Assembly (NCBI RefSeq): GCF_058153355.1
Contig: NZ_CM177019.1
Strand: one strand, 5' to 3'
DNA: 64,000 bases
The position numbers and the translations under genes are program-made. Within the stretch, counting starts at the first letter, position 1. Each line of letters begins with the position of its first letter. Under the pieces are notes generated by a model. The model ran no database searches and had not been told where the DNA came from. It worked only from the letters and a program-made list of their open reading frames with translations. Of this stretch, positions 21,651 through 22,931 are shown one piece after another.

Positions 21651-22931
21651 CTATAGCTGTTTATTCCAGAGATGCTTGTAAATATCTAATGTTGAGACAA
21701 CATTGGCAGGCGACATTCGGTTTAATGAGGGTAGAAAGGGATGAGCCTCCAGGAAGTTGATAAAACGAGTCGCGCTTGCCAACGTCGAATACCGCATTTC
21801 ATTTGCTTTCTTGTTTCCTGTAAGGTTACAAACAGCCATTGAATAATCACGGGCGGAAAATGCACGCCAGACATTATTTCTCACGCCACCACTCAAAAAT
21901 AACCGCGGCGGCGTATCATAATGAGTCGTTTTCTCGCCGCGTTCTTTCACAAAGGAAATATGGCACCGGCTTTGATGAATGTGCTGTAAGTTAGCCATCA
22001 GACAACCGCCTAATATAAAGCACTCGTGATCAAGGTAGTGTTGAATATTTATAGAATATGCTTCAGTCAGTGCTCTAACCAGTTCAAAATGGCGATATGC
22101 CGGAAGAACCGGTTTCACCAGCATCCCCGGATCGTTTTGATGTAATATCGCCCGACCATAATCAATATCAAATAAGGTATCACGCCGCATAGTAAGTAAC
22201 TCCTTGCGTTGTACGTGATGCGCCAGTGTACCTGGAGACAAACGCTCTTCATAACTTGATGCATATTGATAATGCGACTCTACCGCTGATGAAGAATAAT
22301 TTGTTGAAATAGCGACGACTCTACCGCTTTGTTCTTCTGCGGTAACAAGACTATAAAGATAGTTGTTACTACCGTTAAACTTTACGCGAAAAGCGCGGGT
22401 AGCGAGAGAAATATCAGAAGCAGAAGAGTACTGGCAACTTTCTTTATAGTTTACTTCCCGGGCTAGTTTCATCAACTCACGGTTAAGCCCTGTGCTATTA
22501 AGAAGTAATAATTTACGGATATCTGCAAGTGAAGCGCCTTGCTCAATCATCAATGCTAAATGTGTTCTTCGCGGCGTTGTATTTACATGATCCAGAATGA
22601 TAAAAGTTCTGGAACAATGATGACAATACATTCTCCTCTGCCCCTGAGCTGAATAGCCATACTTTTTCAGAGATGTGCTTCCGCAAGCTGAACATTGTGG
22701 AACCAACCTTCTCCATGAATGATTAACACGATTACGATAAATATTAAGAGATCGTTCAGATATCACAGGAAACAAGTAACCGCATTCCCGACATAAAATA
22801 TTTTTGCCTTGTGCAATATAATCCTGGCTATTCAACTGCCCCAGGTTTTTGCATCCTGGTGTTTTGCAACAATCAACATTTACGTTGGTAAACATATTCA
22901 CTCCCTGCGAATACCCGGATATTATCGTCAT
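21651..22931 (-). CDS. hypothetical protein with two N-terminal zinc-ribbon motifs (IS1/IS1595-transposase-like zinc finger) and a putative HTH
   Basis: 426-aa ORF; Cys pairs CCKTPGC...CRECG and CSACGSTSLKKYGYSAQGQRRMYCHHCSRTF (resembles the InsA/IS1595 zinc ribbon); ASLADIRKLLLLNS is HTH-like. No radical-SAM CxxxCxxC motif. True start may be the internal Met at ~22895. Confidence 0.6.
   Translation of the reverse strand: MTIISGYSQGVNMFTNVNVDCCKTPGCKNLGQLNSQDYIAQGKNILCRECGYLFPVISERSLNIYRNRVNHSWRRLVPQCSACGSTSLKKYGYSAQGQRRMYCHHCSRTFIILDHVNTTPRRTHLALMIEQGASLADIRKLLLLNSTGLNRELMKLAREVNYKESCQYSSASDISLATRAFRVKFNGSNNYLYSLVTAEEQSGRVVAISTNYSSSAVESHYQYASSYEERLSPGTLAHHVQRKELLTMRRDTLFDIDYGRAILHQNDPGMLVKPVLPAYRHFELVRALTEAYSINIQHYLDHECFILGGCLMANLQHIHQSRCHISFVKERGEKTTHYDTPPRLFLSGGVRNNVWRAFSARDYSMAVCNLTGNKKANEMRYSTLASATRFINFLEAHPFLPSLNRMSPANVVSTLDIYKHLWNKQL

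Follow-up and report, generated by a model that had tools for sequence, protein, structure and literature searches.

Among the systems described so far, the insertion sequence (IS) IS1 and the FHY3/FAR1 factors of eukaryotes come closest to the gene treated here. InsA of IS1 is a sequence-specific repressor which binds the ends of the element. FHY3 and FAR1 are transcription factors derived from transposases of the Mutator-like or other superfamilies, and their DNA binding has been shown experimentally; to our knowledge, such co-option of a whole DDE transposase as a host regulator is a common theme in eukaryotes that is rarely documented in bacteria. We analysed a window of 64,000 nt of the Escherichia coli chromosome (contig NZ_CM177019.1 of assembly GCF_058153355.1) with dnaK, dnaJ, mokC/hokC, nhaA and nhaR, where the mokC–nhaA interval holds three minus-strand genes. 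Two of them encode a Tsx/OmpK-like channel and a sulfatase; the third, for which X serves as working name of both gene and protein, we take to be the open reading frame (ORF) at 21651-22895 on the minus strand. We are confident that X is domesticated and non-mobile. That it is a domesticated IS1-like transposase acting as a local regulator of the cassette formed with its neighbours, with the full mechanism set out below, is the reading towards which we lean, if only somewhat.

The ORF at 21651-22931 (minus strand), read in the initial annotation as a protein of 426 residues, is intact in the window. A start at 22931, however, adds 12 unsupported codons. We assign X a length of 414 aa plus stop (21651-22895) because the GGAG box at 22901-22904, 6 nt upstream of the ATG at 22895, the 37 orthologues and RefSeq all favour that ATG. 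The start Met is common to all 37 aligned orthologues, followed by Phe ('MF') in 36, the RefSeq product is likewise 414 aa, and the ORF list together with a ratio of nonsynonymous to synonymous divergence (dN/dS) of 0.10, treated below, supports the gene. All residue numbers refer to this form. Public records name X variously 'IS1 family transposase', 'hypothetical protein', 'cytoplasmic protein' or 'zinc-binding domain-containing', and the first of these labels is mistaken and widespread. Literature searches found no publication on X or its family.

The N-terminus carries two Cys4 clusters, both of which had been noticed from the sequence and are conserved across orthologues. Zinc cluster 1 (residues 10-38; 22782-22868, minus strand) consists of C10, C15, C35 and C38, which are at least 90% conserved in a family-wide alignment of 26 sequences with identities down to 18%; in the AlphaFold2 (AF2) model it forms short beta hairpins of moderate confidence by the predicted local distance difference test (pLDDT). 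Zinc cluster 2 (C68, C71, C91 and C94) is invariant or nearly so down to relatives of about 20% identity. It opens an InsA-like module (residues 65-145; 22461-22703, minus strand) in which the zinc ribbon is followed by a helix-turn-helix (HTH). The likeness of this cluster to the IS1/IS1595 zinc ribbon was confirmed by the NCBIfam zinc-domain model for these families, NF050000, which matches X above its cutoff of 28 (32.8 bits, E 7.4e-8), and by hhalign, where X 65-145 aligns with InsA 5-88 of IS1 InsAB' at a probability of 94% (E 1e-7) against an IS1 profile that is shallow. This alignment spans the ribbon and also the stretch that the initial annotation had called HTH-like. The HTH module is structurally similar to those of LuxR and sigma region 4, and across the family no other sequence feature is as conserved as the InsA-type ribbon with its HTH. 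Judged by these profile comparisons, the DNA-binding module of X is homologous to the IS1 repressor InsA, with which X shares the CxxC...CxxC ribbon and the HTH behind it, and for X we propose the same activity, that of a DNA-binding repressor.

In sequence, the likeness to IS1 ends with this module. The NCBIfam IS1 transposase model NF033558 aligns with X only over model positions 1-84 and, with 26.8 bits, stays under its cutoff of 100. A Pfam scan of X gave nothing significant, and in the scan of the 26 family members Zn_ribbon_InsA was the sole match. The IS1595 and TniQ domains that the initial annotation had named did not hold up: Zn_ribbon_IS1595 reached an i-Evalue of only 0.79, DDE_Tnp_IS1595 had no match, and TniQ was absent from the Pfam-A matches of X and of the family members alike. 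IS1595 family membership was rejected on the two former results.

For the C-terminal ~300 residues neither sequence nor profile searches found any match in Pfam, NCBIfam, PHROGs, PADLOC or the PDB; profile matches to C2H2 zinc-finger arrays and MCM5 in the PDB were discarded as Cys/His-pattern noise. The initial annotation had been unable to place these residues, and this holds for sequence searches, whereas the predicted structure gives a clear fold assignment. The AF2 model, built with 37 orthologues, has a predicted template modelling (pTM) score of 0.82 and a mean pLDDT of 76, with high confidence at residues 110-210 and 250-300 and in the C-terminal helices and poor confidence at ~320-365. 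Since residues ~158-414 (21654-22424, minus strand) model as a beta-beta-beta-alpha-beta-alpha-beta core followed by helices, the predicted fold of the core is that of a DDE transposase, of the RNase H-like superfamily. In structure comparison it resembles DDE transposases and integrases (IS6/IS26, IS4/Tn5, the IS256/Mutator-like ISCth4, IS1, piggyBac and Hermes) at 6-13% sequence identity, and no enzyme family beyond transposases and integrases was found to be similar.

DDE enzymes of this fold have their third catalytic residue directly after strand beta5. We mapped the catalytic positions of X by predicted secondary structure together with the alignment rather than by three-dimensional superposition, and found E291, the one residue still retained at a canonical catalytic position, immediately after beta5. 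Position 291 is the sole one acidic in at least 70% of the 26 family sequences, and every sequence has Glu or Asp there. A conserved Thr/Ser (T166) stands at the centre of beta1, and beta4 is followed by a near-invariant Pro (P262). On this mapping the canonical DDE triad of X is not intact, because E291 is the sole family-wide acid while the two other acidic positions are occupied by Thr/Ser and Pro; X thus shares the core fold with DDE transposases and retroviral integrases and differs from them at two of three catalytic positions and in its lack of mobility. Residues N199, Y211, R238, Y246, H269, F270, H286, H290 and W343 are also conserved family-wide, and this His/Glu set leaves room for a new ligand- or metal-binding site in the modelled core.

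Further differences from IS1 concern organisation. X is a single 414-aa ORF without programmed frameshift and with an extra N-terminal zinc cluster; its core is not detectably similar to InsB or to Pfam DDE_Tnp_IS1 (PF03400, InsB-type), which matches neither X nor any of the 26 family members; and it stands as a single copy, without IS ends, inside a metabolic operon. On these comparisons X belongs to neither the IS1 nor the IS1595 transposases, because the catalytic domain that defines them, element ends and mobility are all lacking.

The evidence on mobility is extensive. X is carried by 1171 of 5426 complete E. coli genomes, always on the chromosome and always as a single copy, and is full-length and intact in 1164 of these carriers; at all E. 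coli loci inspected its place is in the sulfatase–nhaA interval. The gene flanks show no terminal inverted repeats or target duplications, and neither do those of the whole cassette in five genera, where matches of 7-14 nt were at chance level. The tblastn matches in plasmid and phage collections were mostly to Mb-sized chromids or chromosomes, and no genuine plasmid or phage copy of X was found among the records inspected. The initial annotation had considered an unrecognised mobile element spanning about 21560-23020; the search for repeats around the gene returned only such chance-level matches, no genome had a second copy, and the inspected plasmid and phage records yielded no genuine one, so that this idea was abandoned. 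We therefore reject X as a mobile-element protein, as it has one copy per genome, a fixed site in E. coli and no inverted repeats.

It should be noted that several database records are misfiled. In PLSDB, NZ_CP092913.1, a 'plasmid' below 200 kb with katG, metF, metL and metB, is a mislabelled chromosome fragment, NZ_CP141089.1 and NZ_CP134663.1 are 'plasmids' of 4.9 Mb, and the one 4.9-Mb record inspected is a chromosome; the INPHARED entries AFYI01000001.1 and AGRM01000004.1 are Salmonella genome contigs of 164-290 kb. Such records can yield false 'mobile' matches.

Two deeply diverged alleles of X exist in E. coli, the window allele in ~230 genomes and another, with ~81% nucleotide identity to it, in 941 (including sequence type 131, ST131, and ATCC 25922). 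X is under clear purifying selection, because dN/dS between the two alleles is 0.10 at a synonymous divergence (dS) of 0.98; the selection is weaker than on the sulfatase, for which the same comparison gives a dN/dS of 0.03. When window 21651-25300 is compared with ATCC 25922 (L026), dS peaks at X (0.98) and declines to either side, with 0.56 for the sulfatase, 0.37 for nhaA, 0.11 for dnaJ and 0.03 for the tsx-like gene; this profile suggests that the two very old alleles reflect an ancient haplotype, imported or balanced, with X at its centre.

The initial annotation had left open whether X was a novel or a domesticated transposase. We favour the latter, and consider X domesticated because it combines an InsA-like module and a DDE fold with a triad that is not conserved, a single-copy syntenic gene and a dN/dS of 0.10. 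As analogues, the FHY3/FAR1-type factors are conceptually closest: like them, X is a whole transposase (zinc-finger DNA-binding domain plus inactivated core) preserved as a host gene by purifying selection and, by hypothesis, put to use as a transcription factor, and it differs in being bacterial and in having an InsA-like module.

Upstream of X lie the gene for a periplasmic Ser-type sulfatase (23025-24518, minus strand), with a signal peptide, an SSPSR formylglycine motif and Pfam Sulfatase in orthologues, and the first cassette gene (24539-25300, minus strand), for a Tsx/OmpK-like outer-membrane channel with Pfam Channel_Tsx in orthologues and the RefSeq product name 'outer membrane protein OmpK'. 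The order channel, sulfatase, radical-SAM/SPASM anaerobic sulfatase maturase (anSME) and X recurs in Salmonella, Klebsiella, Scandinavium and three contigs from metagenomes or metagenome-assembled genomes. In these six full cassettes the X orthologues are 64%, 64%, 40%, 56%, 36% and 32% identical to X and start 8-27 bp past anSME without exception, often with an arylsulfotransferase gene next; in Salmonella, X stands between anSME and such a gene near nhaA. A further orthologue, 28% identical, abuts an anSME-type gene on a short contig. When the two E. coli alleles are counted, X adjoins genes of the sulfatase cassette in all nine orthologue contexts, and it always accompanies the cassette, which occupies at least four chromosomal sites (dnaJ-nhaA, beside cdd, beside hrpA and beside mgsA). 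The comparative check proposed in the initial annotation, whether gene and sulfatase travel together, was hence answered in the affirmative.

Both E. coli alleles are without the anSME gene that each of the six full cassettes from elsewhere has ahead of X; the window spacer at 22896-23024, between sulfatase and X, compares with L002 6786-7976 of the Salmonella locus and with L005 6801-7973. The E. coli Ser-type sulfatase is strongly selected (see above) though its cognate anSME is absent. The NCBIfam matches of the window sulfatase fall below the equivalog cutoffs, and a homologue search with it returned orthologues of at least 71% identity only.

The X family is small: when 1.84 billion representatives were searched exhaustively with a profile, 32 matches fell below 1e-30 and 120 below 1e-10. 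Foldseek against AFDB50 together with the genome loci places it in Enterobacterales, Vibrionales, Gilliamella and Celerinatantimonas, and its entries are often misnamed 'IS1 family transposase'. Three proteins from the deep search (P0122, P0129 and P0193) were set aside as tandem zinc-ribbon repeat proteins with an unrelated C-terminal part. The PADLOC defence-system models contain no family for X or for the two paralogues scanned.

The remote paralogues, at 20-30% identity to X, were studied at twelve loci. At nine of them the paralogue directly adjoins a gene for a 520-aa 5'-nucleotidase of the UshA/CpdB superfamily, and seven of these pairs are divergent, 130-178 bp apart. This nucleotidase is 43-56% identical to that of the Salmonella sulfatase locus. 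The three remaining loci carry nupC, a DeoD-type purine nucleoside phosphorylase, phosphopentomutase (deoB) and adenosine deaminase (add), and the Providencia paralogue has a second sulfatase, the nucleotidase, a TsgA-like transporter, deoD and anSME around it. In Salmonella and some E. coli a paralogue with 22-26% identity to X lies between metF and metL, divergent from a 5'-nucleotidase gene (Salmonella L028 5294-8110; E. coli KE47 L029 4315-7131), and Salmonella has both X and this paralogue. The divergent-promoter layout of the paralogues is of the kind typical of local regulators, as far as gene order can tell.

A CRP-like TGTGA-N6-TCACA box was present in all seven divergent intergenic regions of the paralogues and perfect in two. 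The region between the metF–metL paralogue and its 5'-nucleotidase gene holds a perfect CRP box along with the conserved inverted repeats CTTTCAG-N26-CTGAAAG and CAACGA-N10-TCGTTG, which are candidate operators. In E. coli, CytR and CRP control the nucleoside-scavenging genes tsx, deo, nupC and cdd. The neighbours of the X family (Tsx-like channels, nupC, deoD, deoB, add and 5'-nucleotidases behind CRP-like boxes) recall this system by way of analogy only, as CytR belongs to the LacI family and is not homologous to X, and co-regulation by X and CRP would follow solely from the sequence motifs.

The promoter of the cassette itself (window 25301-25640) holds two conserved upstream blocks beside a CRP-like box. 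The candidate CRP box TGCGAtcttcaTCACG (25412-25427, minus strand) is conserved in position in Klebsiella, and a perfect TGTGA-N6-TCACA stands at the matching position of the Scandinavium cassette promoter; taken alone, the E. coli box is not above chance within the window. The block CTATAAATCAAA (25495-25506, minus strand) is conserved in E. coli, Klebsiella, Scandinavium, contig L011 and the rearranged Salmonella locus, and may serve as operator or as -10 element. In the regulator model, CTATAAATCAAA and ACACATTTTCTGAAAC are candidate sites for a putative X footprint.

We propose the following model. From an IS1-like transposase as ancestor, X would have emerged as a protein of two zinc ribbons, an InsA-type HTH and a remodelled RNase H-like core. 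The InsA-like module would bind specific DNA in the cassette promoter region and X would thereby set transcription of a CRP-dependent scavenging operon, probably together with CRP, while the core would serve oligomerisation, effector sensing or both. Judged from the paralogue neighbours, the effector could be a nucleoside or nucleotide-like molecule. Regulation of the adjacent sulfatase operon had been suggested in the initial annotation; it is the best-supported function, resting on cassette linkage, the InsA-type module and the divergent layouts of the paralogues, and as such it is something that we infer. Further, we speculate that X and its paralogues are the first described bacterial transcription-factor family formed from a complete, catalytically remodelled DDE transposase, with the pocket around E291 and the His residues as nucleoside or nucleotide sensor and with CRP as partner, a proposal that we consider possible, if short of probable.

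Several points weigh against a regulator of IS1 descent. No statistically secure operator motif was found, and the conserved blocks and inverted repeats are not shared across subfamilies. That X binds at the operon, that it has a regulatory output and that it responds to an effector, of whatever identity, are all deductions. X is the last gene of its operon and not a divergent regulator gene. The C-terminal domain gave an hhalign probability of 0.2% against IS1 InsB, again with the shallow IS1 profile, and IS1 ancestry is demonstrated for the N-terminal module alone, because the C-terminal profile shows no similarity to InsB. The model of X is moderately confident overall, with ~320-365 poorly modelled. 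The core equals the DNA-binding module in strength of conservation, and the cluster H269, H286, H290 and E291 is kept near the old active-site region, as placed by secondary-structure positions; such a conserved His/Glu cluster could equally mean a catalytic role. A by-eye motif likeness of the C-terminal domain to InsB (TDGWPLY against KPVLPAY) was not used, given the same hhalign probability.

The conservation of the core is also what favours the strongest alternative, in which X, instead of acting as a transcription factor, serves the pathway as an accessory enzyme or factor in the cytoplasm. Its core (H269, H286, H290, E291, N199, R238 and W343) might then bind a metal and act on a substrate that resembles a nucleotide or nucleic acid; alternatively, X might aid maturation or export of the sulfatase, with zinc ribbons and HTH as structural or non-specific nucleic-acid binders. 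The invariant His and the invariant acid at the old catalytic Glu position fit such a role, as do the last place in the operon, the 8-27 bp between anSME and X in all six cassettes with anSME, and the nucleotide and nucleoside enzymes beside the paralogues. However, X is strongly selected in E. coli without anSME and is hence not simply an anSME partner; the most conserved feature of the family is the InsA-type ribbon and HTH, a sequence-specific binder in IS1; the paralogues have the divergent promoters of regulators; and the core resembles no enzyme family but transposases and integrases. We regard this alternative, in either of its forms, as rather unlikely.

That X still performs a DNA transaction, as transposase or recombinase of the cassette or as a site-specific nuclease or invertase, appears very improbable. 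The DDE-transposase fold and the presence of the cassette at four or more sites across genera speak for it, and the sulfatase-linked subfamily keeps the extra acidic residues D161, D255, E217 and E318. In the model topology, however, D161 and D255 sit where strands beta1 and beta4 start, which would put them on the sheet edge opposite the canonical site, and two of the three canonical positions are non-acidic family-wide. Neither gene nor cassette is bordered by inverted repeats or target duplications in five genera, and X keeps to one copy per genome at a fixed E. coli site, with no genuine plasmid or phage copy in the inspected records. A decaying IS relic without function, be it pseudogene or fragment, as the public names 'IS1 family transposase', 'hypothetical protein' and 'cytoplasmic protein' might suggest, is in effect already refuted by selection and conservation, namely by an intact gene in 1164 of 1171 E. 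coli carriers, a dN/dS of 0.10 at saturating dS, and retention in the same operon position down to orthologues of 28% identity.

Two further features of the locus deserve mention. A terminator scan found a 14-bp stem-loop with a T-run directly after the sulfatase stop (22947-22977, minus strand), which precedes X in E. coli and anSME in other genera. Klebsiella and Salmonella keep it, with compensatory changes within the stem, and from its sequence and position it is probably a partial terminator or attenuator within the operon; its conservation suggests attenuated read-through into the downstream genes. The Salmonella island (L002 404-4599 and 9376-11091) contains two arylsulfotransferase genes and a 5'-nucleotidase gene of the UshA/CpdB/SoxB superfamily beside the Tsx-like channel, and this gene content would connect the sulfatase cassette with the nucleotidases that recur beside the X paralogues.

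The nhaA–X interval of the window contains a complete ISSso6 of the IS110 family (20037-21554; transposase ORF 20114-21289, plus strand), with a 14-bp sub-terminal inverted repeat TATGACTTTCCGTG and 'AG' at both flanks. The insertion beside X was found in the window strain only and is absent from the 98-99% identical locus of 2013C-4282. Full-length ISSso6 occurs in 40 of 5426 complete E. coli genomes, at up to 16 places per genome and in part on plasmids. Immediately left of it is a 208-bp tandem duplication (19621-19828 and 19829-20036) that takes in the first 51 nt of nhaA along with the promoter region before them. The two copies join at a TAAG microhomology, and the second is 100% identical to the reference strain sequence.

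X stands for a protein family that has had no name so far and is clearly marked by its genomic surroundings, which corrects the annotation as 'IS1 family transposase'. The full architecture of InsA-like module plus core has long been kept, in one copy and within an operon, by major pathogens, among them E. coli B2/ST131, Salmonella and Klebsiella. If the regulator model is true, the X family would, together with CRP, control unrecognised periplasmic scavenging modules in Enterobacterales and Vibrionales, consisting of the Tsx-like channel with the Ser-type sulfatase, of the 5'-nucleotidase, or of nupC/deoD/deoB/add. The locus also flags an uncharacterised and apparently CRP-controlled periplasmic pathway of Tsx-like channel and Ser-type sulfatase, with or without arylsulfotransferase and 5'-nucleotidase, and this sulfatase pathway may matter in the gut.

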